Numbered from the stretch's first letter, positions 11,494 through 28,308 are shown. The stretch is DNA of 64,000 nt from a virus (IMGVR_UViG_2585427590_000001:5971-69970); one strand, 5' to 3'. Notes: generated by a model from the sequence alone, not told the origin. Translations and numbers: made by a program.

Positions 11494-14400
11494 TCAACGA
11501 TACACGGGGTCAGACAAGCTCTCTCGCAGGCGAAGGCTGAGGATCTTGTTGCGGATCAGGACGCCGTCCTCCCGTTTTGCCGAATTGCTGGCCCGGGTTT
11601 TCAGCGATCGTTGTAGGGTCTCCTTCGTGATCGGCACCCCACCATGTACCGGCAACGCGTTGAACTTCTCAATCGCCCTCACCGCGTCGTCGATGGCACC
11701 ATCATCCTGAGACATGGCCGCCATCGCGAACTTGTTGACCAGGCGCTGACGCTCACCGAGAACGCGTCGCTCCGCGTTCTTCAATGCCGTGTTTCGGTCC
11801 CACGTCTCCGCCACCCTCGCCGGGTTGAAGCCGAGCGCCTGGGCAACGATGTCATCATAGCCCATCTCATCGGCCGGCAGCACCTGATCCCCGCCGACGG
11901 TAGCCAATCCTTCGCTAGCGTACCGGTAGGATTTCATCAGGTCTCGGACCGCCTTGGGCGCCATCATCTCGATGCCACGGGCAACCTCACCATCATAGAT
12001 CAGGCTGGCACCCGTGTAGAGCGTTTCCCCAAGCCCCGCCGTCGCGCCGAGCGTCTGCGTGAGCCAATACTGGTACTCGTCCTTGCCCTGAAGGTCGCGA
12101 GACGGAGACCGGAACCACAAATCTGGCATGCCGATGCGGCTCGACAGATCAATGCCGAGGTAGTGACCGGGCACACCATTCAACACCACACCGCCGAGCT
12201 CCGGCCCGAGAATGTCAACGACGTTGGCCTTGAACTGCGTTTCGAAGTCCATCGGATCGTCATCGTCGCCGAACACCATGCCGGCCAGCCCCATCAGCAG
12301 ATGGAAGCCAACGGTGCCCGAAACGCCCGCCATAAGCGACATCATGCCGACGACGCCGGCGAGCTGATACCGTGCCTCCTTCCGCGCCTGCGCGGTTTCA
12401 CCCTTCATGGACTGGTGAATATCCCGGAACAGCCGATAGAGCATGTTGATGTTGTGCTGGCGGAAGACGAGAGCGACCTTGGCAAGATCGTTCTGCAGGA
12501 CAGCAGGCCGCGACGAGTTCGCATAGTCGAAATGCGTCTTCCAGGTGAGATCGTGCGCGGTGTCGATCGCCGCCGACATCGTTTCGCCTGCGTCACGCGC
12601 CATGCGATAGGCCGCCAGCGCCGTCACTTCGCGGTTCCAGACTTCAGCGCGATGGAACGCCCAGGAGATGACACCCATCACCCGCGCCCGCAGTGGCGTA
12701 TATTCCACGCCGGTTTCACCCACGCCGGCAAGGTCATGGCTCTGGGTCCGGTCGATCAGGCCCGATTCATAGAATGCCTTGATCGCTGTCTTTTCGTCCT
12801 TCGAGAGGTTGCCGTTGACGATCGAGCCGCGGCCCCTGACCGTATCCATGGACGCTTGCGCCAGCGCGGCGCCTGCCTTGGCGAAGCTACCGAACTTCGC
12901 AGACAGGATCGGAAGGCCTAGCATGACAGTCTGCGTCATGTTGACGACGGCAGCGGCCGGTGAGGCCGCGAGGAACCACACAAAGGCAGTGCTTGTCATG
13001 GTCTGCGCGGCCTTGCTTCCGGTCGGGTTCATCACCCACTCGTGTCGCTTGGATAGCTCGTTGGCGAGGGTGACGCCACGTGTCTGATCGTCGCTCTCCT
13101 TTGCCTGATCCATCGCCTGACCGGTGAGCTCCTGCAATTCGAGCCCATATTTCAAGCGCGCGATCTGGTGCGCGCTGTGGAACATGTGCGACGAGAACAC
13201 CCGCAGTGCGTCGCCGGTGAACCCTGCTGTGCCCTGGCGATGGATGAAGCGCTTGCGAGCCGATAGATCCGGCATGCTTTCCAGATATCGCTGCCAGATC
13301 TGATCCATGATGTCGTTGCCAACGCCGGCGCCGCCAAGGATTTCCTCGATCTCGGCAACAATGCGTGGATCCATGGCCTTGCGTAGATCACTCCCCGCCT
13401 CCATGACCCCCACCTCAACCTTCGCGCCGCCAGCCCCGCGGCGGAGCTCCTCGGCAAAACGATCACGGGCGGCAGCCGTTTCGAACTTCGAGAAGCTCAG
13501 CACCTTCCCGTCGATATCCCGCTGGGTGACGAAATACCGCCCGAAGCGGCCGAGCGGGAAATACGGCTCTTCGACACGGCTTGCCTCGAAGGCGATACGC
13601 ATCTTCGTCAGCCGCGCCTTTGCCGCCCATGTGGCCTTGGTGGTTTCCGCCTTATGCGCGCTCGCCGCATCCTCTTCGGCATTGCGCCGATCGATGCCCG
13701 TCAAGCCGCTATCTCTGATCTTCTCCATCGTCTTGCGATAGCGAGCCTCTGCGCGATCGTGGGCGATCTGCTGCGCCTTCCTCACGTTATCGAGGAGGAT
13801 GTCGTCGAGCTCGAGCGCCTGCTTTTTGTAGGCGTCCCGGACGCGCTGATAGAGCTCCCTGCCCTTGACCGGCATCGCCATGTACTGCTTCCGCAGCAGA
13901 TCATATCCGGGCTTTTTCGTGGTCTCCTCGTCAGTCTTGCTCGGATCGACGCCAGCAAGGGTGCTGTTGTGCATCAGGTTCGCCAGTTCCTGGGCCCGGC
14001 TCTTGTCCTTGCCGAGGAAGCCGAGGCGGGCATATTTCAGCCATTCGCCGGCGATCTCGTCGGCGGCGGCATGCTTCGTGCCACGGTAGGCGTCCATGAG
14101 GCGCTTGACGCGAAGATAGTCGCCGACGGCGGTCATGTTTGGCCGGGCGAGTTCCGTGAAATAGTTCAGCGGGATCGTCTTCAGGAGTGCCGGCTGGATG
14201 TCGACGAGCTTGCCGTTCAGCTCCTTGATGACACGGCTCTCGCTTATGCTTTTTCGGCTGCTGACTTTCGCTGAATCATCTGGCGCGCCTGCTTCAGATA
14301 GACCTGACGCTGAGGATCGCTGGGAGGCCACTTGCTGACCGACTGGGCCCAGTTTTTCCATTCCTGCAACGTGTCGAATGGCGTTGGAGGATCGATTAGC

Positions 14401-17400
14401 CCCTGTACTGCTTGGATCTGGTTTTCCATTTTTGAAGAATGCCCTCATGAGTTTCAGAGCGGCTTCGTCAATTTTCCGATCAAGCCCCGGAACAACTGAA
14501 GTGTCATAGGGCTTACTAGCGGAAAAGTCGATAATGCCGGCTCGATTAGCCACAATTGCTGCGAAGTGGTGGAACGCATCTTTCGCCTGGGCATCCGTGA
14601 TCTTGCGATCTTTAACCAGGCTGTCGAGGAAAGGTTCAATCTCGTACGACAGGCTGGCGAGATTGTTGCCGAAAACGTTGCTGTCGCGGCTGATATTCTG
14701 GCTCGCGGCGAGGTAGTCTCGAGCCGTCTGCGTTATGCCGCCGACGGTGTTGTAGCCGTCATGTCCCATTGCATAGATCGAGTGAACCCCGGGATAAAGC
14801 GTTGCTGCTATATCCGGCGCGCTCAGCGGCGTGTTGGCGGGATGGTTATGATAGAGCACCATGCTGCGATCGGGGTTCGCCATTGCCGAGGCGAGCTTGT
14901 TGCTCATCCCGGTATAGCGCGGGTCGCCTGCGGTGCCGAAATCGATTGTAGAACCGTCATCATCGATCGCAACGAGATACTCGTGCCCGCTAGCTTGACC
15001 CTTCTCCAAGACGATGCGGCGGGCCCAATCGGCATAGCTCTCATCTTCGCCGCGCTCGGGAGCTTGGGCCTCCTTGAACCGGCCGTCGCCACGAACAACA
15101 GGATCAGGGCGCTTGGCCACGGCAGCGTTTGCAGAACCCTTCTGCTTTGGCTTCAGTGCATCGAGAATGCGGCGATGCCGCGCCGACGTCTCCGTGAGCT
15201 CTTCAGAGTGCTCCCATGGGCCAAGCTGTTTTTCAAGCGATGGGATCTGCTCCCTCGCCTCGGCGACGCGCTCGCGGTCCAACTGGGGCAGCGTAGAGAG
15301 CTTCTTGACGGTGTTGATCACGCGCATGCCGAGACCGGTCGCGTCTACGTCGGCAGCGTCCTGTACGTGCACCTGATAATCACGGTCGCCAGAGACTGTG
15401 ACTTCGAACGCCCGATCATACTGGTGCTCGATCGACAACGTGAAATCGCCGTACTTGCCGAGTTCCGTGTCGCCGGCGTGGTCGATCAGTTCCTTGCGCA
15501 TGGCCGCTGCTATTGCGGCCCCGAACTCCTTTGGCTTGTCGAAGGTCTGGCCGCCGATTGTTGCCTCAAATGGCTTGTCGGCAATTGCCTCTGCCCGCTC
15601 TGCATCCTTCTGGACGGAGCTCGAGCGCGCTTCGATCTCGTCGGCTTCCTGTTTAAGAGACCTGATCTTGCCCTTGATACGGTGCTGTTCGCGATCGTGT
15701 TCAACCGACTGGCCTTCCAGCTGGCGCAGCTTGCGACGAGTTTCCATCTCTTCAAGAATGAGAGGGTTGCCCGAGGCAGCGGCCTTCATCTCGGCGGCAT
15801 TCGCAGCCTCGCCGGCAATATCCTCGATCTCGCGGGTTTTCAGATTGCCCTTACGAACCTGCTGGATGAATCGGGCCTTCGCTTCGATGCCCTGCCACTG
15901 GCGCGCATCAAGGGTGTTCTTCGTCGCGTAGCGTAGGATTTCGATTTCGAAGTTGTCCGGATCCTCGCCATAGAGCTCGTTGCCCTGGCGGATGCCACGG
16001 CCGTCACGCTGCTCGAGGTCGGACGGACGCCACGGCGCATCGAGGTGATGGAGCGCTACCAGGCGGTTCTGCACGTTGGTGCCGGCGCCCATCTTCGGCG
16101 TTGAGCCGAGAAGGACTCGGACGCGGCCTGATCGAACCTTTCCGAACAGCTCTTCCTTCTGCGCCTCGGTGTTGGCGTCGTGAATGAAGGCGATCTCATC
16201 GGCAGGGATGCCGCGCGAGATCAGCTTTTCGCGAAGATCATCGTAGACCGAGAACGTGCTCTGCAGCGCGAGGAAGTCATCGGGCGACATATTGTCGAGC
16301 TTTTCCTGCGCCGCCTCGTCGCCCTCGTCCGCCTTCTGGATCAGGGCGCGGAGCGCGGCCTCTTCGCGGGCGCGCGCCTTCTTCGGCGTCGACAGGTCGA
16401 TAAACACCAACTGCGTGCCGCGGCTCGCGTGCCAACGATCGTAGACGCGCTTAATATTGTCGGCAGAGACGTGGACCTTTGAGCCCGGATGATCCGAATA
16501 GGCGGGATCGATCAGGCGCATGTCGAGCGCAGCCTTGCGGGCATCCGACATGACCTTCAGCATGTTGTCGGCGCCCTTTTCCACCTTCTTCGGCAGATTT
16601 TCAGCGCGCCAGACGAGAGAGCCCTTCGGGAACTCAAGATTTCCGTTATCGTCAGCCTTGCCTTCGCCAATAAAGGCTGCCTGATCCGGAGAGCGCTCGA
16701 CGGTGATATTGGTCGGCTTGCCGCCCTTCACCTTCGGCAGCGGGAGCTTCTTGCCGATCGCGGCCAGCTGCGCCTTGATGTCGTCATTGGTGATGACGTC
16801 GGCGAAGCTGAGATAGCGCTGCATCAGCTCGGGCATGTTCACGAACTTGGCAAACCGGCTGTTCAGCTTGTACTGACCGCTCGGCGAAAGCTCCCAGTCG
16901 CTTACTACCTCGCCGAACACCCTCGCCCAGGCGTCGAAATGCGCGACACCGAGATTGCGAAGCGCTTTCTCGTCGAGATACCGCTGGACCGTGAACATTT
17001 CGGCCATCGTATTGCTGAGCGGCGTTCCGGTTAGGAAAACAACGTTGTTGCCGCCGGTCTTTTCGAGAATGAACCGGCTCTTCATGTAGAGGTCGGACGC
17101 CTTCTGGCTGCCCGCTTGATTGCCGAGACCAGCAACGCGGTTCATCGATGTGGCAAAAGCGAGGTTCTTGAACTCATGCGCCTCGTCGACATAGAGCGCG
17201 TCAACGCCGAGCTCGTCGAACGTGAGGCCATCATCCTTCTTTCCGGCATCCAGCAGCCGTTCCATCTTGGCCTTGAGGTTGTCGCGCCATTTGGTGAGCT
17301 GAGCGACGTTCCGCGACTTCTCGCCAGTGTTACGGCGCAGCTCCCCGATGGACTGCTCGAGATCGTCCATCTGCTGCTGGATGAATCGGCTTTCATAGTT

Positions 17401-20400
17401 CGCGTCGATGCCGATCTTGCCGAAGGAGGAATGCGCGACGATGACGGCGTCCCAGTCACCGGTGGCGACTCGGGCAAACAGCCGCTTTCGGTTCTCCTTC
17501 TCGAAATCCTTCTTCGTAGCGGCCAATACCTTCGCGCCGGGATAGAGGCGGACGAAGTCAGCCGCCCATTGCCCAACGAGATGGTTCGGCACGACAAACA
17601 TAGGCTTGCGCGCCTGGCCGATGCGCCGCTTCTCCATCGCAGACGCGATTGCCGCAAAGGTCTTGCCTGCACCCACGGTATGGTCCGCCAGCGCAGTTCC
17701 CGATTGCAGCGACCGCCACACGAAATTCTTCTGGTGCGGCCGGAAGGAGATGATGTCATCCCCAACCTTGCCCGGTAGCGTGAGGTGGCCACCGTCGAAG
17801 CTACGCATGACATCGGTGTTGAAGGTGTCGTTGTAGAGCCGCGCCAGTTCATCACGGCGGGCGTCATTATCCCACAACCACCTGCGCCATTCCGCCTTTA
17901 CGCGCTCCGCCTTCTCGTTTGCTGCATCAGTTGCTGGTTGATTGAGGACCGTCGACCCATCGCCCATGCGGTCAGAGATCGTGATCGACTGGCCGTTCAT
18001 GACCGCACTGAGAATGGTATCGACGCTCGCGCGATCGGTTCCCCACTGCGTCTGAGCCGCCGCGGCCGGCGTCGGCACGTCGAGCACCCACTTGGCATTC
18101 GCTGCGGAATAGTAGGCCTTCGGCTTCACTGAGGACTGAGCTATGTGTTTTACGAAGTCCTCGATGTGTTTTGCCGGTACCCAGGGAGATCCGGGCTTAA
18201 CATCGATGTCGATCGCCTCGATGTCGGCCGGCTGGACGTCGCGAAGGGCGTTGACGTTTCGCCGGAAGTCCGAATCCTGCTCTGCGGCGCGCTCCGCCTC
18301 GGCGAGCTTCTGCTTCACATTACCGGACAGATAGGCGTCCGCAGTCTCATACGCGCCCGACGGTGTCTTATAGACAAGTGGTCCAAGCTCGCTGACGATC
18401 GCGCCCGTGGGCTTGCCATAGAGCCGAGACATTGCGTCCAGATCAACGCGCCCGAGATCGTTAAGGACCGTCGCGAGAGCGTCCTTGGCACTGCTGGCCG
18501 ACGTGGGGCGACGATATGGCTGCTGGGTCCGCTTCGTGAAGATGGCGGCCTTCTGCGCCGATGCTGGCTTTGTCGTCTCGCCAGTCGCCTTGGCAACGGT
18601 CGCGCTGATACCCTTATCGAAACCCTGTTCCAGTGCCGAAATCTGCGGCCAAGTGGGATCATCGCGGAATAGCCGCTTATTGGCGTCCGCATTGATCGGG
18701 CCGTGTTTCTTCACGAATCCGTCGTAGAGCGTGTTGAGCCGGTTGCGGAGGTTCTCGATCTGCTGGTCGCTGGCCTTCTCGTCGATCTGCGCACGACGCA
18801 GCCGGGCGAAGGCGTCACGCACGCGCACCATGCCCGAAACACGTTCCTTGGCAGTCTCGTTCGGGAAAGCAATAGCAGAAGACTGCGCTTGCCCGATCGA
18901 ATCGGACAGGCGCTGGTGGATGGTTCCATCCGGAGCCGCAAACATGGAGCCAACCTGCACGTCGTTGACCGTTTCAGGCACTGCAACGGTCTCGGTAGCG
19001 ACGTGACCGGGCTCCACCATGATGTTTTCGGGCAGGCTGCGGATTGCCTTGGCAAGCTCGGCCGGTGTGTCCTGACCGCCACGCGCGATCAGCGCGGGCT
19101 CATCTGGCCCATACATCGACCCGAACGCGCCGAACTCGCCGAGCATCATCTCGGGGTGAGCAATGAAGTAGTCGTTGAGCGGGACCACTTTACCGTCACG
19201 CCCGCGATAGTCGGACACACCAAGCCATTGGCTCGACGATGGTGCCTCGCCGGCAAGGCGTTTGCGGAGAATGACGATATCCGTGGTTACCTCGGTACCG
19301 GCATTCTTGAGGAACGCGTTATTCGGCAGGCGAATTGCCGCGACGAGATCGGCCTGTTTCGCAATGAGGTTTCGCGCCGCGGCGGACTGACCATCGAGGA
19401 AACGGTTGGTGACAACCATCGCCAACACGCCACCCGGGCGCAGCGCTTCGACACTCTTCGCGAAGAAGAAATTATGAATCGAGAGCTTGTTTAGATGACG
19501 ACGGTCCTTGTCGTAGACCTTCTCACTGCCGAAGGGCGGGTTGCCGATCGCGAGATCAAAATAGCCATCCGGCACCGAAAGCTTCTCGAAGCCCATGGGG
19601 GTCTGGATGTTGGCGCTTGGATAGAGGTTCTTTGCGATGCCGCCGGTGATGCGATCGAGCTCGACGCCAGTCACCTTCGCCGCATCCCTGACTTCGCCCG
19701 GCATCAAGCCGAGAAAATTGCCCGCACCGACGGACGGTTCCAGCACCTGCCCGCCCTTGAAGCCAAGCTTTCGCGCGATGTCCCAAACCGCAGACACGAT
19801 TTCCGGCGCCGTGTAATGCGCGTTGCGAGTCGAGGACTCGGCGGCGCTGTATTCTTCCGGTGAAAGCAGCGCTTTCAATTCGGCTGCCTGCTTCTCCCAG
19901 CCCTTCGCTACAGAACCGTCCTCACGGGCGAATGCCTGGCGCAAACCGCCCCACCCTACCCACTTGGCGAGCACGGACTGTTCGTCGCGCATCGCCGGCC
20001 GCTTCTGTTCGTCGAGCGTGCGAAGAAGCCTGATCGCGGCAACGTTCCCAGCGAATTTCGTCTTCTGGCCGCCTTCGCCGAGATTGTCATCGGCCGACAA
20101 TGTGTAATCAACCGCACGATGTTGAGCGGGCACCGCTGCGGATTGGACATCGCGAAGTTGATCCGATATATTCTCATCTGCTCGCGGCGGGGTTGACGCA
20201 GCCCTGTCACCCCACAAAGCGCTGAGAGGGCGTGAACTTCTTTCGGTGCGCCGCGAGCCATTCTCAAAAGCAGTCAGCAGCCACGTTTTGGCGGTGCCAT
20301 CATAGTCAAGGCGCACGCCAGCAGAACCACTTTCGTCGCGGAGCTGGATACGGCGAGTGGTGCTGCGATCTTTGTCGACGCGAAGGCGATCGATGAAACC

Positions 20401-23400
20401 TTGGAGATCCCCGAGCACTTCCGGGTGCCAAGCAAGCAGCTTGGCGAGACCAGCTCCATTGCTCGCGTTTGTGCCGGCGTTCCCCCACACCAGATCGATC
20501 GGACCAATTTCAGGATGAGAAAGAGCGCCGATAGCATCGCCGCTCTGGCGACGCTCAAGCTCAAGTGCCGCCTCACGCCACTTACCCTCGTAACCGCGCA
20601 GAATCGGGCCAAACGGACCCTGCTCTAGATCTTCATCGTCCGCTGACCGGCCGCGACGGCTTTCATCGCCTCGTGACTGATTGAAGAGGTCGGCTTCTCT
20701 GCCACGCTCCCCTCTTCCGGAAGCAGGAGATAATTCTCTCTCGCCATCTGCCACGCCTCGTCCGGACTGTACCCGCTCTCCTCGAGCTGGCTTGTCTCGC
20801 GATACGTCTGTTCGGCTGCGTCCGTCAGCGCCTGGTCGAGCTTCCCGCTCTGCTTCAGCTCCCGATACCGGGTCGGAAGGTGTTCCTTCCAGTGCTGGCG
20901 ACCCAGCTCGATCCAGTTCTGCAGGTTCACTCTCGTCTCCCGTGATCGTCGCAACGTCGAAGGCGTCCACATCGGCTGCACTCGACATCCCATCGAAGGC
21001 GGCCGCGCGCGGATCGTACTTTACACCCATATACCACGATTTCAGATATGGGCGCGCGGCCTCGCCGAGATCGCCGAGCATTGCGCTGGCGTAGGCTGCG
21101 AAGGTGCGGGCGCCCTTTTCAATGTGGTAACCGGCAAGGGTGATACCGGCTTGTAGAAGCTCCGGATCGACGCCCGAGTTGAGCTGCGATCCGTTCAGCT
21201 TCCTCCGGAGCAGCTCTCGCGCCTTGGCAGCAGCGTCTTCGGTGAAGATCTTGTTCTCGGATACTACAGGGGCAGGCTTGAGCACTGTCGGCGAAGCTGG
21301 AGTACCGGCGACAGGGCTGCTCTTCTCCCACTGCGCGAGCTCGCGCTCGCTGGGCGACGTCTGGTGGGTACGTTCACGATCAAGCGAACCATCTGGCCTG
21401 ACTTCGGCTACGCGAACACTCCAACCGCCGGCGCCGCCACGATTGAAAGCAAGCACGCGGTCCTTGCCGCCGCCGTAGGCGCCAACCTCCCGCCCAGGGC
21501 GGAAGTAATTTTCGAGCCGGTCGAGAAGCGGCGCCTTCTTCGGCTTTTTCGGCGGCGATGGTGGAGTTGCCTCCCTCGCCGCGTCAATGGCTCGCTGTCT
21601 ATCGGCTCGAAGCTTGGCTGCCTCAGCCTCTTTCCTTTCCTCCGCCGCCCGCTTCATGTCGCTGAGCGACTGCTGGAACTCCTTGCGGATAGCGTCGGCA
21701 AGCTCTTTGCCCCTGAGAACAATGCGCTGCTTGCCATCGTCTTTAAACAGCGTGAAGGTGACAGCCGGCCCCGGTCGCGTTTCAACCATGTATTTGTTGC
21801 CGCTCGCGCCGCCGACACCCCAGCGAGCGTCGATCAGATCGAGAAGCTCCTTGTTGGTAGCGTTGGCCTGGACGGCATCAGCGATGGGCTGGTCGCCGCC
21901 GTTGATCGTCGATAGGCGGCTAAGGGCATCCGACATAGCATCCCAGTCGCTACCCCAGACATCATCCCAAGGATGCTGGTCGGCATCGAAAACCTTCTCT
22001 GATGCCGGGGCCGCCGTCTTCGCCTTCTCACGAACTTCGAAGCGCTTGCCATTCTCGACCACCTCATGAGACGTGCCGAGCGATTGCTTCGCGATATGCG
22101 CCTCAGCCTTTTCGCGCGAGCCGAACCACTTCGGCGCGAACGGCTGGGCCGTCGTGCCGGACTTGAGCCATTGCTTGAAATCGCCCATCGTCGTGGAGCT
22201 GAGATCGCCGAGGCCCTTCCAGCCCGGAGCGTAGTTCTCCAGGTAGGCAGCGCGGGCCGAATCCTCGCTATCGAAACCGAGCATCACCTTGTGCTCGTCG
22301 AATCGACCATTGGCGCTCTTCTGGTCGACGACAAAGACCAGAGAACTATCGTCGAGCTCATTCACGCCTGGGCGAACGAAGGTATCGATATGATCCTTGT
22401 CGCGACCTACGGTCCCGCGGATGTAGCCATAGTGGCTCTTCATCTTCACGGACCATGGAGTGCCGTTAGGATTGACGCCCTTCCGCTCGGATCCTTCCGG
22501 GTTCTCGACAGAAATATCGAGGCCAGCGAGCTTTAGGCGACCAACCTTGTAGTTGCCTGCCTCTTTCTGAGCCTGCGTGGGCTCGGGCAGGTCATTGTTG
22601 GGAGACGTCGCCGCGTCGTGTGCGGAAGAATCTGCCGCTCGGTCTGTCCTTTGTCCTGGGACCGCGGACGCAGACACGACGCCCTGGGACATCTCGGGAA
22701 CCGGCGTGACGTCCGCCGGCGTCGACTTTGGCGTCTCGGGCGTCCGAACCGCCTCGAGCTTCTTCCGGATCGCGGGCGTGAAGCCAGCCCACTTCGATTT
22801 CTCGCTACGCTTGACGCCGGTCTCGGCGAGGATGCGCTTGCGGGCGAGATCGTCTAGTGTCAGGTCCCACCAGTCGGCGAAACTATCGCCTTCGGCGGTG
22901 ACGTCAGGCGCTGCGTTCTCTGCGGCCTCCTCGTTCTTGCGATCACGCTGCCACTGGCGGAGCCGCGTGTCATTGACCGGATGCATGTGCACAGGCAGCG
23001 CAGACCGAGCTTCCTTCGCCGCGCGATCGACGCGATAGCGGTAATCATCCGCCATCGAGGTGACGGCGGTCGTCGAGACATTGAAGGCGTCGGCTAGCCG
23101 CTTCACTTCGGCGGCACTAACCCGTTCAAGGTCCGTGTGAGCTTCCCTTCCCAACTTCTTCGCAATAAAGCGAGATTTGGCTAGATCGAACAACGCGGCG
23201 TGGTTCTCGTCCGGAAGAACGACGGTCTTTCCGATTACCTTGCGGCTATTTGGACCAGCATCACCGATTTCTCGCTCGATCAGCGGATTTCGCTCAAGGT
23301 CCTGCTTCTCGACCTGCGCCGGCGTCAGCTTGTCGACATAGAGGCGATTGACCGGCACCTGCAGAACTTCGCCATCATCCGTGCTGACAACGGCCTCGGT

Positions 23401-26400
23401 TTCGCCTTCCTCGTAGCTCTCGACCTTCGCCGCAAACCTTCCGACCTTGGAATCATCGACGATGACGCGTTGACCAGGCGACGGGCGGCCGCGCAAGCGC
23501 TCGCTCGCCGCCTGCATGTCCTTCTGAGGCGGAAGTGGCTCATTCTTGATCTCGCTGGCGATCGGCGCCTGCGGCTCCAACGCAGGGTCTTTCGAAAATT
23601 CAGGTATGCTGTCGTTGATCGGCACCGGGCCTTTCTCAATCGGGTTTTCCCGGTTGAGCTGCTCGGGCGACTTGGCGATCTGCGAGATGCTCGCGATCGG
23701 CACCTGATAGACTTCGCCGCTACCGCCATCGATGACGACTGCCTCATCGCCCTCGTAACCGTCCACGCGGGCCATGAACGGGTCGACGCCCTCGTGATCG
23801 ACACGAACAGTCGCGCCGACGGCTGGGCGGCCTTCCTGCTCACGCTGGATGTCAGCAGCGGCAGCTCGCCCCATCTCGTCGATGTGTTCATCGGCAGTCT
23901 TCCCCTGCCGCGCCATATCGAGCATCCAATCAGGCGTCTTGTACGGATCAACCGCCTGATCTTGCCGGCTCCGGATTTGCTCCTCGGCATGCTGCACCGA
24001 GCGCCCGATCGGACCCTTGGGTTGAGGCGCGACCTCCGGTGCCGGCGCTGCTGCGGCAGGTGCCGCTGCAGAGTGTTCGGGGGAGGCTGGGCTAAACGCG
24101 CCGCCTGCGCCGCCCATGCCTGCACCCATGGCACCGCCAGCCGCGATACCGGATGCAACCGCCTCCCCCACGCCTTCCGTCAGAGACTGGTTTGGATCAG
24201 CCTTCTGAACGGCCGCGTTTTCCGCAATGGTCTGTAACGCGCCCTGTGGCGCTTCTTCGAGCAGGCCCTCGCCCACGAAACCACGGGTGGCTCCGGCGAC
24301 AACGCGCTTAACGATGTTGCCACCGACACCCTCGGCGATGATCTTGGCGAGCGCCCGATCGCCCATACCGCCAAACATGCCGGTGGCAACACCTGCTGTG
24401 AGGAACGCTTGGGAGGCGGCGTCCTCGGTAAGAGCCTTGATGGCATCGTCCTCCGACATGCCACTCTGCACCATCGCCCGCACGGCGTCGGTCTGCGCCA
24501 GCTGCTCGCGGGGAAGCTTCCCGATCTTTTCACGCACATTGCGCGCTGAATCGGCTCCGCCCATGGTGCCTTCGGTGATAGCGCCGGCGAGCGTTGCCGT
24601 TCTGGCAGCAGCCGCGGCGGCCACACGTTCCGATGCGCCACCCGCAAGAGCACGCAGATATGCGCCGCGCGCCAACACGCCGCCTGGCAACATCGTGACG
24701 ACGGTACCGGGAGCACTTTCGCCGACGGTGCGGAGATAGCTGCGGGGATCGCGCCACGCTGGGCCGAAAGTATGCTTCTTATCGTCCCACCAGTTCTTGG
24801 CGTCGGCTTCCTGCTGGCGCTCGGTCACGCTCGCATTCGCCAGTTGCTGGGAATCGGCCATCTTCTGGTCGAGGGTCTTGCCCATCACCCAACGATCGAT
24901 GTCGTCGGACGCTTTCAAGAAGTCGTCACCGCCGGGCAGTTTGTGGAAAACGGTGTCGGCGAGCGACGATAGCGACTGTCCAACGCCAATCGTACCGGAT
25001 TTCAGGATGCGGGCGATGTCGCCACCAATGCCGCCGGAGCGGTTATCGGCTTCCCACTGCTTCTGCCAGTTCGGGAGCTCGCTCTCGTCGATCGCAACAT
25101 AGCGGCCCGGGTTCTGCGCCTCGAGCTGCTGCTGCCGATCGGTCACACCGGCGTTGTGCTCCTCGGTGAAAGCTCGCATCCGGTTTTGTTCAGCCTGGGC
25201 GCTAGCGTCTGCCTGCCGCCGATCGGCAGCCGCCACCTGCGTATCCACCGTCTGCTGAATCGGATTGCTGTCGGGGTAAAGCCCCATTGGGTCCTTGGCC
25301 GTGAACTGAGCATCGGCCACGATCGTGGGCGCGTCTGATTTCGTGGCAACCGCCGGCGCATCATCATGACCGTCACGAGCGTCCACCGTCTCGATATGCC
25401 AGTTTTCGTTCTTGAGCGGAAAGCGCATCCCGTACTTGCCGGCATTCGCGTGCACCCAATCGACGACTTCCTTCGGCGCCGATGAAAATTCGCCTCCGTT
25501 CCAGCCGAGATCGGCCGCATCGCCATGCTGGTGGCGCGATCCACCGGGGGCGCCGATGTTGGCGGACATGCCAGACTGCTTGAAAATCGGCTTCCACTTC
25601 TGACCGGCAGCAACCGGGCCCATGGCGTCAACGTCAGCCAGCCATGCCTTGCGGTCGATCCCGTACTTGCCGGCGTTGTCCGCGATGATCTGCGCCTGCC
25701 GCTCCGGAGAGCGCGCGCCGGAAAGGATGTCGAGGCCGGATTTCACAAAGTCCGGCGCATCGTTGAACATCGCAGTGAGACCAGACTGAAGGCCCGGCTT
25801 CATATTGCTGATGTACTCGGCGGGCTTGCCTGGCTGAAGCTTGCTCAGCAGCATGGAGCTGTCGGCGCTGGCGTCCTTCGGCTGCTCCGCCTTCTTCGGG
25901 TTCAGGATTGCCTCGAACGGATCGACGACGTTGCCATCGAGGCCGGGTGCAAATGCTGTCTTGGCGGAAGGCTTGCCCTGCCCGGACTTGTAGAAGACGT
26001 GGCGACCGCGCTTTGTCGTCTCCTGCATTGAGCTCGCCCAATCGGGCATGACGGAATCGGCGTGGTAATGATCTGCGCCGCCGGTCTCATCAGGGAGTGC
26101 GCCGGAGAACACACCATCGATGATCGCCTCGGCACGCTGGCGAATGGCTGGATCCTGCTGGGCGCGCTTGGCAGCCTCGCCCGGGGCTTCGTATCCAGTG
26201 AACTGGCTTTTCTGGCGCACAACGTCGCCGGGGCTGATGCCTCTCTCAGAAGAGCGGTTGCGAATAACGGATGCAACGTCGGCCATGCCGGCGTCACCCT
26301 CGCCCGCGGCTTCAGCAATCACCGTGTTGACGAGATCGCTTCGGTCGGCATCACTGAACGATGGTCGCGTTGATGCGCTCGACTCACTGGTCTTTGGAGC

Positions 26401-26478
26401 TTCAGGGGCTTTGCCGCCGTAGAGATTGAGAGGATCTTTCCAGCTATCGTCTCGGCCAAGGCCAATCACCAGAGGCAT
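11494..26478 (-). CDS. Giant DarB-like polyvalent virion protein (~4990 aa): SleB-type hydrolase, M15 peptidase, InPase-like, BECR-like nuclease, N6-adenine MTase, SNF2 helicase, JAB/MPN-like and PLxRFG domains
   Basis: Motifs TVIAEA.GEG/HYHADSVMPDW/HVFY; SRHQHGDAAD/ENWH; HYGYIRGTVGRDKDHID; IDLVWG/WLLTAFE; EPSVGAGNF/GNPPF; VGAGKT/DEAH/TGTP; HNHP..S..D; PLGRFG. GGAG RBS favours ATG 26478 over 26511. Confidence 0.9.
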   Translation of the reverse strand: MPLVIGLGRDDSWKDPLNLYGGKAPEAPKTSESSASTRPSFSDADRSDLVNTVIAEAAGEGDAGMADVASVIRNRSSERGISPGDVVRQKSQFTGYEAPGEAAKRAQQDPAIRQRAEAIIDGVFSGALPDETGGADHYHADSVMPDWASSMQETTKRGRHVFYKSGQGKPSAKTAFAPGLDGNVVDPFEAILNPKKAEQPKDASADSSMLLSKLQPGKPAEYISNMKPGLQSGLTAMFNDAPDFVKSGLDILSGARSPERQAQIIADNAGKYGIDRKAWLADVDAMGPVAAGQKWKPIFKQSGMSANIGAPGGSRHQHGDAADLGWNGGEFSSAPKEVVDWVHANAGKYGMRFPLKNENWHIETVDARDGHDDAPAVATKSDAPTIVADAQFTAKDPMGLYPDSNPIQQTVDTQVAAADRRQADASAQAEQNRMRAFTEEHNAGVTDRQQQLEAQNPGRYVAIDESELPNWQKQWEADNRSGGIGGDIARILKSGTIGVGQSLSSLADTVFHKLPGGDDFLKASDDIDRWVMGKTLDQKMADSQQLANASVTERQQEADAKNWWDDKKHTFGPAWRDPRSYLRTVGESAPGTVVTMLPGGVLARGAYLRALAGGASERVAAAAAARTATLAGAITEGTMGGADSARNVREKIGKLPREQLAQTDAVRAMVQSGMSEDDAIKALTEDAASQAFLTAGVATGMFGGMGDRALAKIIAEGVGGNIVKRVVAGATRGFVGEGLLEEAPQGALQTIAENAAVQKADPNQSLTEGVGEAVASGIAAGGAMGAGMGGAGGAFSPASPEHSAAAPAAAAPAPEVAPQPKGPIGRSVQHAEEQIRSRQDQAVDPYKTPDWMLDMARQGKTADEHIDEMGRAAAADIQREQEGRPAVGATVRVDHEGVDPFMARVDGYEGDEAVVIDGGSGEVYQVPIASISQIAKSPEQLNRENPIEKGPVPINDSIPEFSKDPALEPQAPIASEIKNEPLPPQKDMQAASERLRGRPSPGQRVIVDDSKVGRFAAKVESYEEGETEAVVSTDDGEVLQVPVNRLYVDKLTPAQVEKQDLERNPLIEREIGDAGPNSRKVIGKTVVLPDENHAALFDLAKSRFIAKKLGREAHTDLERVSAAEVKRLADAFNVSTTAVTSMADDYRYRVDRAAKEARSALPVHMHPVNDTRLRQWQRDRKNEEAAENAAPDVTAEGDSFADWWDLTLDDLARKRILAETGVKRSEKSKWAGFTPAIRKKLEAVRTPETPKSTPADVTPVPEMSQGVVSASAVPGQRTDRAADSSAHDAATSPNNDLPEPTQAQKEAGNYKVGRLKLAGLDISVENPEGSERKGVNPNGTPWSVKMKSHYGYIRGTVGRDKDHIDTFVRPGVNELDDSSLVFVVDQKSANGRFDEHKVMLGFDSEDSARAAYLENYAPGWKGLGDLSSTTMGDFKQWLKSGTTAQPFAPKWFGSREKAEAHIAKQSLGTSHEVVENGKRFEVREKAKTAAPASEKVFDADQHPWDDVWGSDWDAMSDALSRLSTINGGDQPIADAVQANATNKELLDLIDARWGVGGASGNKYMVETRPGPAVTFTLFKDDGKQRIVLRGKELADAIRKEFQQSLSDMKRAAEERKEAEAAKLRADRQRAIDAAREATPPSPPKKPKKAPLLDRLENYFRPGREVGAYGGGKDRVLAFNRGGAGGWSVRVAEVRPDGSLDRERTHQTSPSERELAQWEKSSPVAGTPASPTVLKPAPVVSENKIFTEDAAAKARELLRRKLNGSQLNSGVDPELLQAGITLAGYHIEKGARTFAAYASAMLGDLGEAARPYLKSWYMGVKYDPRAAAFDGMSSAADVDAFDVATITGDESEPAELDRAGSPALEGTPSDPVSGAEAEREARPGADGRSRTDVSRDKPARGERVQSGRGVADGERELSPASGRGERGREADLFNQSRGDESRRGRSADDEDLEQGPFGPILRGYEGKWREAALELERRQSGDAIGALSHPEIGPIDLVWGNAGTNASNGAGLAKLLAWHPEVLGDLQGFIDRLRVDKDRSTTRRIQLRDESGSAGVRLDYDGTAKTWLLTAFENGSRRTERSSRPLSALWGDRAASTPPRADENISDQLRDVQSAAVPAQHRAVDYTLSADDNLGEGGQKTKFAGNVAAIRLLRTLDEQKRPAMRDEQSVLAKWVGWGGLRQAFAREDGSVAKGWEKQAAELKALLSPEEYSAAESSTRNAHYTAPEIVSAVWDIARKLGFKGGQVLEPSVGAGNFLGLMPGEVRDAAKVTGVELDRITGGIAKNLYPSANIQTPMGFEKLSVPDGYFDLAIGNPPFGSEKVYDKDRRHLNKLSIHNFFFAKSVEALRPGGVLAMVVTNRFLDGQSAAARNLIAKQADLVAAIRLPNNAFLKNAGTEVTTDIVILRKRLAGEAPSSSQWLGVSDYRGRDGKVVPLNDYFIAHPEMMLGEFGAFGSMYGPDEPALIARGGQDTPAELAKAIRSLPENIMVEPGHVATETVAVPETVNDVQVGSMFAAPDGTIHQRLSDSIGQAQSSAIAFPNETAKERVSGMVRVRDAFARLRRAQIDEKASDQQIENLRNRLNTLYDGFVKKHGPINADANKRLFRDDPTWPQISALEQGFDKGISATVAKATGETTKPASAQKAAIFTKRTQQPYRRPTSASSAKDALATVLNDLGRVDLDAMSRLYGKPTGAIVSELGPLVYKTPSGAYETADAYLSGNVKQKLAEAERAAEQDSDFRRNVNALRDVQPADIEAIDIDVKPGSPWVPAKHIEDFVKHIAQSSVKPKAYYSAANAKWVLDVPTPAAAAQTQWGTDRASVDTILSAVMNGQSITISDRMGDGSTVLNQPATDAANEKAERVKAEWRRWLWDNDARRDELARLYNDTFNTDVMRSFDGGHLTLPGKVGDDIISFRPHQKNFVWRSLQSGTALADHTVGAGKTFAAIASAMEKRRIGQARKPMFVVPNHLVGQWAADFVRLYPGAKVLAATKKDFEKENRKRLFARVATGDWDAVIVAHSSFGKIGIDANYESRFIQQQMDDLEQSIGELRRNTGEKSRNVAQLTKWRDNLKAKMERLLDAGKKDDGLTFDELGVDALYVDEAHEFKNLAFATSMNRVAGLGNQAGSQKASDLYMKSRFILEKTGGNNVVFLTGTPLSNTMAEMFTVQRYLDEKALRNLGVAHFDAWARVFGEVVSDWELSPSGQYKLNSRFAKFVNMPELMQRYLSFADVITNDDIKAQLAAIGKKLPLPKVKGGKPTNITVERSPDQAAFIGEGKADDNGNLEFPKGSLVWRAENLPKKVEKGADNMLKVMSDARKAALDMRLIDPAYSDHPGSKVHVSADNIKRVYDRWHASRGTQLVFIDLSTPKKARAREEAALRALIQKADEGDEAAQEKLDNMSPDDFLALQSTFSVYDDLREKLISRGIPADEIAFIHDANTEAQKEELFGKVRSGRVRVLLGSTPKMGAGTNVQNRLVALHHLDAPWRPSDLEQRDGRGIRQGNELYGEDPDNFEIEILRYATKNTLDARQWQGIEAKARFIQQVRKGNLKTREIEDIAGEAANAAEMKAAASGNPLILEEMETRRKLRQLEGQSVEHDREQHRIKGKIRSLKQEADEIEARSSSVQKDAERAEAIADKPFEATIGGQTFDKPKEFGAAIAAAMRKELIDHAGDTELGKYGDFTLSIEHQYDRAFEVTVSGDRDYQVHVQDAADVDATGLGMRVINTVKKLSTLPQLDRERVAEAREQIPSLEKQLGPWEHSEELTETSARHRRILDALKPKQKGSANAAVAKRPDPVVRGDGRFKEAQAPERGEDESYADWARRIVLEKGQASGHEYLVAIDDDGSTIDFGTAGDPRYTGMSNKLASAMANPDRSMVLYHNHPANTPLSAPDIAATLYPGVHSIYAMGHDGYNTVGGITQTARDYLAASQNISRDSNVFGNNLASLSYEIEPFLDSLVKDRKITDAQAKDAFHHFAAIVANRAGIIDFSASKPYDTSVVPGLDRKIDEAALKLMRAFFKNGKPDPSSTGANRSSNAIRHVAGMEKLGPVGQQVASQRSSASGLSEAGAPDDSAKVSSRKSISESRVIKELNGKLVDIQPALLKTIPLNYFTELARPNMTAVGDYLRVKRLMDAYRGTKHAAADEIAGEWLKYARLGFLGKDKSRAQELANLMHNSTLAGVDPSKTDEETTKKPGYDLLRKQYMAMPVKGRELYQRVRDAYKKQALELDDILLDNVRKAQQIAHDRAEARYRKTMEKIRDSGLTGIDRRNAEEDAASAHKAETTKATWAAKARLTKMRIAFEASRVEEPYFPLGRFGRYFVTQRDIDGKVLSFSKFETAAARDRFAEELRRGAGGAKVEVGVMEAGSDLRKAMDPRIVAEIEEILGGAGVGNDIMDQIWQRYLESMPDLSARKRFIHRQGTAGFTGDALRVFSSHMFHSAHQIARLKYGLELQELTGQAMDQAKESDDQTRGVTLANELSKRHEWVMNPTGSKAAQTMTSTAFVWFLAASPAAAVVNMTQTVMLGLPILSAKFGSFAKAGAALAQASMDTVRGRGSIVNGNLSKDEKTAIKAFYESGLIDRTQSHDLAGVGETGVEYTPLRARVMGVISWAFHRAEVWNREVTALAAYRMARDAGETMSAAIDTAHDLTWKTHFDYANSSRPAVLQNDLAKVALVFRQHNINMLYRLFRDIHQSMKGETAQARKEARYQLAGVVGMMSLMAGVSGTVGFHLLMGLAGMVFGDDDDPMDFETQFKANVVDILGPELGGVVLNGVPGHYLGIDLSSRIGMPDLWFRSPSRDLQGKDEYQYWLTQTLGATAGLGETLYTGASLIYDGEVARGIEMMAPKAVRDLMKSYRYASEGLATVGGDQVLPADEMGYDDIVAQALGFNPARVAETWDRNTALKNAERRVLGERQRLVNKFAMAAMSQDDGAIDDAVRAIEKFNALPVHGGVPITKETLQRSLKTRASNSAKREDGVLIRNKILSLRLRESLSDPVYR
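14244..14429 (-). CDS. Nested 61-aa ORF in the +1 frame of the giant gene
   Basis: ATG with upstream GAGG; protein-like helical sequence (DPPTPFDTLQEWKNWAQ); the giant's own frame here is a low-complexity linker. Confidence 0.55.
   Translation of the reverse strand: MENQIQAVQGLIDPPTPFDTLQEWKNWAQSVSKWPPSDPQRQVYLKQARQMIQRKSAAEKA
20144..20172 (+). promoter_or_regulatory. Sigma70-like promoter antisense to the giant gene
   Basis: TGGACA-N17-TATATT. Confidence 0.6.
20180..20260 (+). ncRNA. Candidate structured, tRNA-sized antisense RNA
   Basis: Starts ~7 nt after the -10 box; GCTCGCGGCG pairs with CGCCGCGAGC; internal GGGTTGAC/GTCACCC hairpin; ends in GCCA. Confidence 0.45.
20625..20930 (-). 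CDS. Nested 101-aa ORF in the +1 frame of the giant gene (weakly TnpV-like helical protein)
   Basis: GGAG-N7-GTG; NWIELGRQHWKEHLPTRYRELKQSGKLDQAL...AWQMARENYLLLPEE; the giant's own frame here is an R/G/S/D/E-rich linker. Confidence 0.7.
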   Translation of the reverse strand: MNLQNWIELGRQHWKEHLPTRYRELKQSGKLDQALTDAAEQTYRETSQLEESGYSPDEAWQMARENYLLLPEEGSVAEKPTSSISHEAMKAVAAGQRTMKI

Positions 26479-26500
26479 GCGCGCGGGCTCCATCGTAAGA

Positions 26501-26555
26501 GCCGCACTCATGCGCGGTAAATGACAGGCGATTTATAGGCAATCCCGACAGTTTT
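26501..26555 (-). promoter_or_regulatory. Putative late promoter plus GCGCATGAGTGC leader hairpin of the giant gene
   Basis: AAAACT.TCGGGATTGCC-TATAAA, then 16 nt, then the hairpin; matches 7681-7736. Confidence 0.6.
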
Positions 26556-26937: not shown

Positions 26938-28308
26938 TCACGACGGAGCTGACCAGTTCAACAGCGTGCGCGGGTCCGTGACCTTGCGCAACTCGACCTC
27001 GCCGCACTTGACGATTGGCGTTCCAGAAACGTTGGCGTCAAAGGTAATTTCAGTACGCCAGCGGCCGTTTGGAGCTGCGCCGATGATCTGGAAAGGTGGC
27101 GTCTCTAGATAGCCGGCCCGCGCCTGCGCCGCCCATTTCTCGTTCGCTGAACCACTGTTATACGGCTCCATCGCATACGAGATGATGCCCCCCGATGTCT
27201 GGTCGGAAGCATACAACGCGACACCGGTGAACCCGGCGTAGTTGTTCGTTTCGATCTTGCAACGAGCCTGTATCCAGTCACCGACAGCCATCCCGCTAAG
27301 CGCGGTATCTGCGGCGTTGGTGCGGAAATAGAACTTGTCTTCCGCTGTACCTGCCGGAGTGAAAGTCATCACCTGATATTCGCCGAGACCATCGGCCCGG
27401 GCCTCTTTCGAAGCGACGACAGACGATCCGCCCGCAGACCGCTCCACGCGCATGCCGGTTGCCACGGTCCCGGTAGCGCCAGTTCCAAGCGTTCCTGTAG
27501 TGCCGAGGCAGAGAGGGTTTACCAACCGGTTGCCAAGCGGGTTATTTGTCGCGTCATACAGATCGTCAGGGTATGCGGTGAAGCCCTGCGCTGCAGGGAG
27601 GATCGTCGCGAGGAATTGAGCCAACGCATAGCCGACAGCCTCGCCGCCCTTCGGGTTGAAATGGATCGCGTCAGGCGAATAACCGCTCTTTGGCTCGCCG
27701 TAGGTGGACGCGAAATCAACCCAAGAAAGGTTCCAGTCGAAGAAATAGCAGTTCTTCTTCGTGCGGCAGAACTCGCGCGTCTTGCGGTTGATCCAGTTGG
27801 CCTTGGCGCGCTCCGGGCCGCCTCCCGTCCAGGATCCGACGCCACGCGCAAGGATTGGCATGAGGATGACGATCTTGCCGAACGAGAGATAGTAGTTCGC
27901 GAGGCTTTCGCGTGCGGCCTGTATATCCTCTTTCGTCTGGGGCCCCATGTCGTTTGTTCCATCATCGATAACGACGATGTCGCAATCTACCTTGGTAGCG
28001 AGATACGACTTACGCGCCTCGATCTGCGCGAACGTCTGGCCGCTGACGCCTGCATTCAAGCCTTGAAAATAGCGAGTTGCACCCCCGACACCGGAAGGCT
28101 CCCAACCTGCGTAGACGGTGCTGTCAAACCATATCGGGCAAGAGAACAAACGGCTGCCGTAAAACCGCGCCCACGACAACCAACCACGTGACCAGTGGCT
28201 AATCTTCGGGCTGATCGTCCCGTTCTCACAGTGCTGAACGAGCGACGTGCCGATCACGCCGAGGCGGTAGCCGCGAGCGGGTACAACATTTTCAAGATTG
28301 AGTGTCAT
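26938..28308 (-). CDS. SGNH/GDSL hydrolase-domain protein, probable virion-associated polysaccharide esterase
   Basis: Blocks IGTSL, NAGVSG, DDGTND, DAIH; C-terminal beta-sandwich-like region. Confidence 0.8.
   Translation of the reverse strand: MTLNLENVVPARGYRLGVIGTSLVQHCENGTISPKISHWSRGWLSWARFYGSRLFSCPIWFDSTVYAGWEPSGVGGATRYFQGLNAGVSGQTFAQIEARKSYLATKVDCDIVVIDDGTNDMGPQTKEDIQAARESLANYYLSFGKIVILMPILARGVGSWTGGGPERAKANWINRKTREFCRTKKNCYFFDWNLSWVDFASTYGEPKSGYSPDAIHFNPKGGEAVGYALAQFLATILPAAQGFTAYPDDLYDATNNPLGNRLVNPLCLGTTGTLGTGATGTVATGMRVERSAGGSSVVASKEARADGLGEYQVMTFTPAGTAEDKFYFRTNAADTALSGMAVGDWIQARCKIETNNYAGFTGVALYASDQTSGGIISYAMEPYNSGSANEKWAAQARAGYLETPPFQIIGAAPNGRWRTEITFDANVSGTPIVKCGEVELRKVTDPRTLLNWSAPS

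Follow-up and report, generated by a model that had tools for sequence, protein, structure and literature searches.

The subject of this study is a short open reading frame (ORF) of 61 codons that lies wholly within a giant phage gene, in frame +1 relative to it, immediately behind the part of that gene that encodes a JAB/MPN-like domain. Both are on the minus strand of a 64,000-nucleotide (nt) stretch of viral DNA (IMGVR_UViG_2585427590_000001:5971-69970), hereafter the window, whose positions are counted from its first letter. The window is part of a 69,970-bp provirus record, a PBC5-like prophage; elsewhere it encodes, among others, a portal protein, the large terminase, internal virion proteins, virion structural proteins and a tail fibre. 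The features needed for what follows, with lengths and places in proteins given in amino acids (aa) and structure models made with AlphaFold2 (AF2), are these:

11494-26511, minus strand: the host gene, a single ORF for a polyvalent 'DarB-like' virion protein of 5,005 aa (from the ORF listing, its translation and Pfam)
14431-15084, minus strand: the JAB/MPN-like (RadC-like, HNHP) domain, aa 3810-4027, presumed partner of the nested product (from invariant residues, the AF2 model, Foldseek and VIA)
14812-14850, minus strand: the metal-site motif HNHPANTPLSAPD (H-x-H-x6-S-x2-D, from the translation), with H79, N80, H81, P82, S88 and D91 invariant
14442-14446, minus strand: a Shine-Dalgarno-like GAGGG, 12 nt before the nested ATG and overlapping an alternative-frame stop, TGA, at 14447-14445 (from the sequence)
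14244-14429, minus strand: the nested small gene, 61 codons and a TAA stop (14246-14244), in frame +1 of the giant ORF (from the ORF listing and translation)
14247-14430, minus strand: the host-frame linker, approximately aa 4028-4088, open and weakly constrained (from substitution ratios, GC by codon position and stop counts)
13687-14235, minus strand: LPD39 (PF18858), aa 4093-4275, beginning 9 nt past the nested-gene stop (Pfam E 1.9e-61)
11542-13566, minus strand: the PLxRFG or 'tail-700' C-terminal domain (NF032893; NCBIfam E 7.5e-282)

The host gene is a polyvalent protein gene in the full sense, since it joins many unrelated effector domains in a neighbourhood of virion and packaging genes. 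Its Pfam matches are Hydrolase_2 (a cell-wall hydrolase), VanY, InPase, PBECR1, an Eco57I-type N6-methylase, SNF2/helicase and LPD39; Phage_Mu_F was not matched in the giant protein of the window at E<=0.01 in Pfam. Homologues of 2,800-5,900 aa, named 'PLxRFG domain-containing protein', are common in Rhizobiaceae, and in the cultured phages PBC5 and Atu_ph08 the giant gene goes by the name 'DarB-like antirestriction' (Attai & Brown 2019; PMC6630229).

An initial annotation, made from the sequence alone, had placed a 61-aa ORF at 14244-14429 with GAGG upstream, filling the linker behind the HNHP..S..D domain in a region richer in AT than its flanks, and all of this proved accurate. The ORF lies at exactly that position, with GAGGG at 14446-14442; it starts with the ATG at 14429-14427, translates as MENQIQAVQGLIDPPTPFDTLQEWKNWAQSVSKWPPSDPQRQVYLKQARQMIQRKSAAEKA (of which the initial annotation printed just residues 1-54) and occupies the gap between the HNHP..S..D domain (15084-14431) and LPD39 (14235-13687). 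GC content is 0.527-0.580 in 300-nt windows across 14150-15049, compared with 0.627 on one side (13850-14149) and 0.637 on the other (15050-15349). The length of the ORF alone is unremarkable, as this G+C-rich gene holds 19 same-strand ORFs of at least 50 aa between 12000 and 20267. The conservation of the nested ORF, unlike its mere presence, is far beyond chance.

That conservation was measured in relatives whose DNA was taken from viral contigs and bacterial genomes. The alignment contains 38 HNHP-bearing rows, corresponding to 32 distinct DNA sequences, and an ATG-started +1 ORF of 58-69 aa is found in the same place in every one of them, over a range of host-frame identity to the window that runs from 87% down to 38%. 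The peptides share the consensus G-[FL]-[IV]-D-P-P-x-P-F-D-T-L-x-x-W ... Y-L-K-[QE]-A-R-x-x-I-x-x-K. A nested +1 gene also follows the JAB-like domain in all three cultured phages that we inspected, PBC5 (L103, AF448724.1), Atu_ph08 (L104, NC_070876.1) and Ruegeria phage 45A6 (L105, KT820175.1), and it is unannotated in the records of all three. (The 2001 PBC5 record does annotate long ORFs on both strands inside orf23, namely orf25-orf30, which resemble G+C-rich chance ORFs.) The gene is kept in phages of Rhizobium, Agrobacterium, Sinorhizobium, Shinella, Ciceribacter, Ruegeria and others. Conversely, within the DNA examined, the small ORF is absent from 20 of 20 LPD39 relatives that have no JAB-like domain. 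When 120 full-length homologues, read in their annotated frame, were searched with the peptide by blastp, no E value fell below 0.37, which rules out a compensated frameshift of the host protein. Searches against plasmids, by tblastn with the peptide and by blastn with the region, gave no match.

The nested ORF is under purifying selection in its own frame, and this selection is stronger than that on the host frame over the same bases. By the Nei-Gojobori method, the ratio of nonsynonymous to synonymous substitution rates (dN/dS) in 14 pairs was 0.12-0.64 for the nested frame (0.38 or less in 13 of them), whereas the host frame gave 0.97-2.46 in 13 pairs and 0.22 in one; the LPD39 flank gave 0.06-0.27 in the same 14 pairs. 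Site diversity at host codon positions 1/2/3, computed over 32 sequences, was as follows:

Overlap core: 0.41/0.31/0.26
JAB-like core: 0.46/0.37/0.63
LPD39 start: 0.24/0.17/0.50

Host position 3 is thus the least diverse in the overlap, which means that the most variable position there is the third position of the nested frame. Of 325 gap-free pairs, 313 showed higher amino-acid identity when read in the nested frame than when read in the host frame; mean identity was 62.5% for the former and 48.6% for the latter. When 6.5 kb (11494-18024) was scanned against three close relatives, variability at position 3 fell below that at position 1 only in the 120-nt windows starting at 14424 and 14364. 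Base composition by codon position was also informative: GC at positions 1/2/3 is 0.66/0.46/0.72 over the whole host gene, and within the overlap (14250-14430) it is 0.63/0.60/0.40 in the host frame and 0.60/0.40/0.63 in the +1 frame, the latter being the normal coding pattern.

Three other same-strand ORFs on the minus strand, at 17142-17867 (241 aa), 14454-14639 (61 aa) and 14904-15098 (64 aa), the first two also in frame +1, were rejected as coding, with ordinary host third-position variation. The initial annotation had spoken of a 'first nested ORF' in the same alternative frame; if it meant one of these three, that part of it found no coding support. Separately, in the window and three close relatives, host third-position variability is lowered over 14430-14545 (minus strand), upstream of the nested ATG (0.38 and 0.18, against approximately 0.6-0.8 elsewhere), an effect that is weak in the wide family. 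This low-variability tract of about 100 nt may mark a region where translation starts internally, or it may be the trace of recent recombination.

The nested peptide belongs to a wider family of small proteins. At E<=1e-3, a profile of 20 nested peptides matched 258 of 1.84 billion cluster representatives, and most of these matches are 50-80 aa long. From these 258, a second profile was built with 30 divergent small proteins (54-81 aa), two of which (L069 and L077) are confirmed to be encoded by free-standing genes; in each of five host genomes searched it hit the nested ORF (E 2e-19 to 9e-14) and no other sequence. The same profile matched one of 401 genomes sampled from the phylum, the one already holding a nested copy, and because the other 400 gave no match we consider the family rare in bacterial chromosomes. 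Some proteins carry the small domain two or three times in tandem, and in a few it sits inside a larger protein of 161-390 aa without known domains (P0127, P0128, P0129, P0131, P0135; P0130, P0136, P0198); P0130, one of the larger proteins, has a hydrophobic N-terminus.

This small-protein family is genomically locked to one JAB/MPN-like domain, in both directions and in three architectures. Starting from the small gene, a search of viral contigs with a 9-row alignment subset of the family led to the JAB-like domain at 12 of 12 loci. Eight of these are known giant genes, two more giant ORFs (L076 and L078) carry the small gene in +1 directly behind an HHNHP..S..D domain, and at the remaining two (L069 and L077) the small gene is truly free-standing, with the other frames closed, behind a gene that encodes a Phage_Mu_F head domain together with the same JAB-like domain. 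The Phage_Mu_F match is present in L077 and marginal in L069 (28.1 bits, just under the Pfam cut-off of 29.6 bits). At these two loci the small-gene start lies either 4 nt beyond the MuF-JAB gene's end or 20 nt ahead of it, and head-tail and tail genes follow. Starting from the domain, a second JAB subfamily has the small gene directly after it at 22 of 23 loci, the sole miss running off the end of its contig. Fourteen of the 22 are free-standing behind MuF-type genes of 467-641 aa, and eight lie nested, in frame +1, within ORFs longer than 1,000 aa, where they start with ATG or GTG.

The spacing of the free-standing genes is close. Their starts, located in 11 cases, range from 37 nt before to 4 nt after the stop of the JAB gene, and in six of the 11 an ATG or GTG overlaps that stop by 4 nt. 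Such a 4-nt overlap of stop and start is typical of translational coupling. Coupling by termination is impossible for the nested copies, which have a Shine-Dalgarno-like purine-rich motif instead: AGGA, GAGG or AAGG lies within about 20 nt before the start in 30 distinct nested peptides and at the eight nested loci of the second JAB subfamily, as judged by eye and unscored. The alternative frame is closed immediately before the ATG in one relative (L007) and 5 codons before it in the window. Every nested copy (the 38 rows, L078 and the eight loci of the second subfamily) is in host frame +1, whereas all three frames, +0, +1 and +2, occur among the free-standing copies behind the JAB gene; the uniform +1 nesting fits a single origin of nesting, with a mechanistic constraint as another possibility. 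Giant ORFs of a second kind (more than 1,400 aa, open at both ends) also carry the JAB-like domain and the nested gene; they are represented by L076/L096 (IMGVR_UViG_2936028420_000001), L092, L095, L097 and L099-L102, and in L076 the region downstream of the nested gene is a different one, not LPD39. This shows movement of the cassette from one polyvalent protein to another.

Comparison of the nested and free-standing states also shows what the host frame does over the small gene. Across the nested loci, both the 38 rows and the further ones, the host frame contains no stop, whereas the equivalent frame in 14 free-standing relatives is open in one and carries 1-7 stops in the other 13. Since the host frame is open when the gene is nested and mostly closed when it stands alone, both frames appear to be used. 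The sequence constraint is carried by the nested frame, and the host frame need only stay open. Two linker motifs that seemed conserved in the host frame, ..VRHVAE.EG.. and ..GLSE.., are read from the very bases that encode PFDTLQxW and YLKQA in +1, and are thus shadows cast by the nested protein.

The domain next to the nested gene has the hallmarks of a JAB/MPN metal site: E35, H79, H81, S88 and D91 are invariant in 20 of 20 aligned JAB-like sequences. In all 20 of these, six residues separate the second His from the Ser; in the textbook JAMM motif there are seven. The AF2 model of the domain is confident (predicted local distance difference test, pLDDT, 95.6), and in a Foldseek search of the PDB its top rows are JAMM/MPN enzymes, although the best E is only 0.012 (probability 1.0). 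VIA Z scores were 8.5 for BubCD, 7.7 for PfJAMM1 from Pyrococcus and 6.6 for RadC, with AMSH within 8.5-6.2 and cytidine deaminases near 6. The viral structure library BFVD gave 15 matches at E<=1e-3. Seven carry the name 'minor capsid protein', and six of those seven are 522-577 aa long; rows named for MPN, RadC or metalloproteases appear only lower down, above E 1e-3. No Pfam family matched at E<=0.1, none matched in NCBIfam, and a sequence-profile search of the PDB gave no match below E 0.46; because curated sequence models give no match, we retain the label 'JAB-like'.

The 61-aa product itself was modelled with a pLDDT of 78.8, as an extended N-terminal segment containing DPPxPFDTL followed by helices at residues 21-32 and 39-60. 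The predicted product is soluble, a helical hairpin preceded by a proline-rich motif in extended form at the N-terminus. Foldseek found nothing in the PDB at E<=1e-3 with this model, only helical-hairpin look-alikes, and a search of a protein atlas with the small protein returned no usable match.

Taken together, comparison of the two frames makes it almost certain that the 61-codon ORF is a real, selected coding gene, and the genomic pairing makes its product very probably a functional partner of the JAB-like domain. That this partner is specifically an inhibitor, or immunity-like, is suggested by analogy and we hold it tentatively, at a little under even odds. Our best overall explanation, to which we give a probability of about 0.55, is that an effector-plus-partner cassette was engulfed by the giant ORF, that the partner is translated by internal initiation, and that it is most likely inhibitor- or immunity-like. 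The initial annotation had reached a similar idea, namely a toxin/immunity-like cassette captured in frame with its partner gene intact. The cassette part of that idea is borne out by the 38 of 38 conserved copies among JAB-bearing homologues (a failure of conservation there was one of the things it named as telling against the idea), the zero of 20 without the JAB domain, and purifying selection in the gene's own frame. The free-standing homologues that it proposed to look for exist and, in every context read, stand directly behind a gene ending in the JAB-like domain (L069, L077 and the 14 cases of the second subfamily), and the two-frame dN/dS comparison that it asked for gave 0.12-0.64 for the nested frame and, in 13 of 14 pairs, 0.97-2.46 for the host frame. 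We use 'immunity' as an analogy only, because the JAB-like domain is no known toxin and RadC-type domains are proposed nucleic-acid processors.

We propose the following model. The nested gene would be transcribed on the giant late mRNA, and ribosomes would initiate internally at the ATG at 14429 by means of the GAGGG at 14446-14442. The helical-hairpin product would then bind the JAB-like domain as its cognate partner and, if the analogy to the small ORFs behind MuF toxin domains holds, would most likely keep the JAB-like enzyme inactive in the producing cell or the virion. As to history, a JAB gene may have lost its stop and come to be read through the partner gene, in another frame, into LPD39/PLxRFG, so that the host-frame linker would be the newcomer and the small gene the older of the two. 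We favour engulfment of an existing two-gene cassette over birth of the gene in the linker, because the family is broad and occurs alone and because the host-frame linker has no constraint of its own. In an unrooted tree of the JAB-like domain, 13 of 14 free-standing loci fall on one side, and all 40 nested rows together with one long-branched free-standing row fall on the other; the nested and free-standing states need two changes on this tree, a single change being also possible. A bolder and more doubtful proposal is that giant polyvalent proteins grow by engulfing two-gene cassettes, a kind of reverse overprinting, and that the hidden 61-aa protein is a pseudo-substrate-type inhibitor whose DPPxPFDTL segment fills the groove of the JAB-like domain until ejection into a new host. 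If such growth is widespread, partner or immunity genes may lie hidden in more of the linkers that giant ORFs of phages and plasmids contain.

Several observations weigh against this explanation or limit it. The spacing of 12 nt between the Shine-Dalgarno-like motif and the ATG is long, no sigma-70-like promoter or terminator was found within 14150-14800, and the RNA fold of 14400-14530 is unremarkable (z -1.5). The small protein has no named family in Pfam, NCBIfam, PHROGs or PADLOC, its best PHROG match being at E 0.03, and genomic context was read for only a minority of the 258 family members. To our knowledge, the JAB-like domain is not known as toxic. In addition, Iyer et al. (2017) argue that the RadC-type JAB domains of polyvalent proteins may process nucleic acids and not be peptidases (PMC5512222).

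The main rival to an inhibitor is an activating or chaperoning partner. The nested gene would be equally real, and its product would assist the JAB-like domain, whether as cofactor, as substrate adaptor, as chaperone in folding or packaging, or by timing the self-processing of the polyvalent protein. The linkage data apply equally to such a protein, the overlap of stop and start with the JAB gene would suit any stoichiometric partner, and the tandem two- or three-repeat and fused forms of the small domain would suit a binding or adaptor module; moreover, RadC-like JAB domains are not established toxins (PMC5512222). The published precedent, however, is that small ORFs after MuF C-terminal domains are proposed to confer immunity (PMC5576092). 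The data here do not separate activator from inhibitor. We regard a positive partner as unlikely, though less so than any other alternative.

It is improbable, to a clearly greater degree, that the small gene is real and unrelated to the JAB-like domain, merely travelling with it as, for example, a head-assembly or host-takeover factor. Linkage alone is no proof of interaction, and MuF-type loci do continue into head-tail connectors and tail genes. However, the pairing holds in three architectures whose downstream partners differ (LPD39, another domain in the L076 type, and tail genes in MuF-type phages), and the 20 LPD39 relatives that have no JAB domain have no small ORF either.

Programmed +1 ribosomal frameshifting, in which the A-run in C AAA AAT GG would yield a truncated giant protein with a 61-aa alternative tail, would account for the five-A run at the junction, for the alternative frame being +1 and for that frame being open for tens of codons upstream in some relatives. 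We nevertheless consider it very unlikely, because the start is conserved (ATG in 38 of 38 rows, ATG or GTG at the eight other nested loci), the A-run is not (relatives have ..AGCGATG, ..TTCAATG or ..CTCGATG), and alternative-frame stops lie just upstream at some loci, including L007 and the window. Free-standing homologues, furthermore, start at the equivalent methionine. Least likely of all is that the ORF is untranslated and the pattern reflects a nucleic-acid element or host-frame constraint, for although low synonymous variation does reach about 100 nt upstream among close relatives, substitutions gather at alternative-frame third positions with an alternative-frame dN/dS near 0.2, the peptide has matches in an independent protein family, free-standing genes among its members, and no significant RNA fold was seen.

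Same-strand genes wholly nested in bacterial or phage genes and supported by clear evolutionary evidence are few, and annotation pipelines discard them. The present case adds a new small-protein family tied to an uncharacterised JAB/RadC-like domain. It also offers a first handle on the function of that domain, for which a cognate binder or inhibitor would serve as a probe. More broadly, it suggests how DarB-like injected proteins assemble from effector cassettes and how their activities might be restrained in the producing cell. Phage PBC5 on Sinorhizobium meliloti, a harmless system, makes the case testable, as a substitution that is silent in the host frame is able to abolish the nested start. 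Beside these main subjects, we record that the gene just upstream of the giant gene, at 26941-28308 on the minus strand, matches the lipase-annotated PHROG phrog_6102 at E 4e-54.

The components of this system are of known kinds, namely polyvalent DarB-like proteins, MuF effector-plus-small-ORF modules and embedded phage genes. Of the small-protein family, its lock to the JAB-like domain and its nested, conserved position we found no description in the literature searched on MuF toxins, polyvalent proteins, PLxRFG, overlapping or embedded genes, Atu_ph08 and PBC5. One case of embedded genes is that of the lambda spanins Rz and Rz1, where a small gene likewise sits entirely in the +1 frame of a larger one and the two products act together. 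Rz1, a lipoprotein, has a signal sequence and, in its lipobox, a cysteine. In contrast, the 61-aa protein described here contains no cysteine and is predicted to be a soluble helical hairpin, its host gene runs to 5,005 codons, and the two genes overlap only within a linker. An embedded lipoprotein of the Rz1 type (o-spanin) was considered as an identity for the product and rejected, given the absence of cysteine.

MuF toxin-immunity modules are similar in having a variable C-terminal enzymatic domain on a phage head protein with a small ORF at once after it, a layout that the free-standing relatives of our gene share, and such small ORFs have been proposed to be immunity genes (Jamet et al. 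2017, PMC5576092). The locus in the window differs from them in that the giant protein has no MuF domain, the JAB-like domain is internal and the small gene is nested in another frame. JAB and MPN are absent from the main text of that paper, and its supplementary tables may list such domains (PMC5576092). The host gene, for its part, is a member of the polyvalent or DarB-like proteins of PBC5-, Atu_ph08- and Bcep22-like podophages, with which it shares the joining of many effector domains in one polypeptide (methylase, SNF2 helicase, RadC/JAB, LPD39) and a place among phage genes (Iyer et al. 2017, PMC5512222; PMC6630229). The word 'overlapping' is absent from both main texts, and the supplementary tables of the second may list this domain or ORF (PMC5512222; PMC6630229, Attai & Brown 2019).

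Finally, overprinted viral genes resemble the present pair in that two proteins are made from one stretch of DNA, with one frame carrying most of the constraint. The difference lies in which frame that is and in its apparent age: the nested gene here looks like the older, independently occurring family and the host frame is poorly constrained, which is the reverse of the usual picture.

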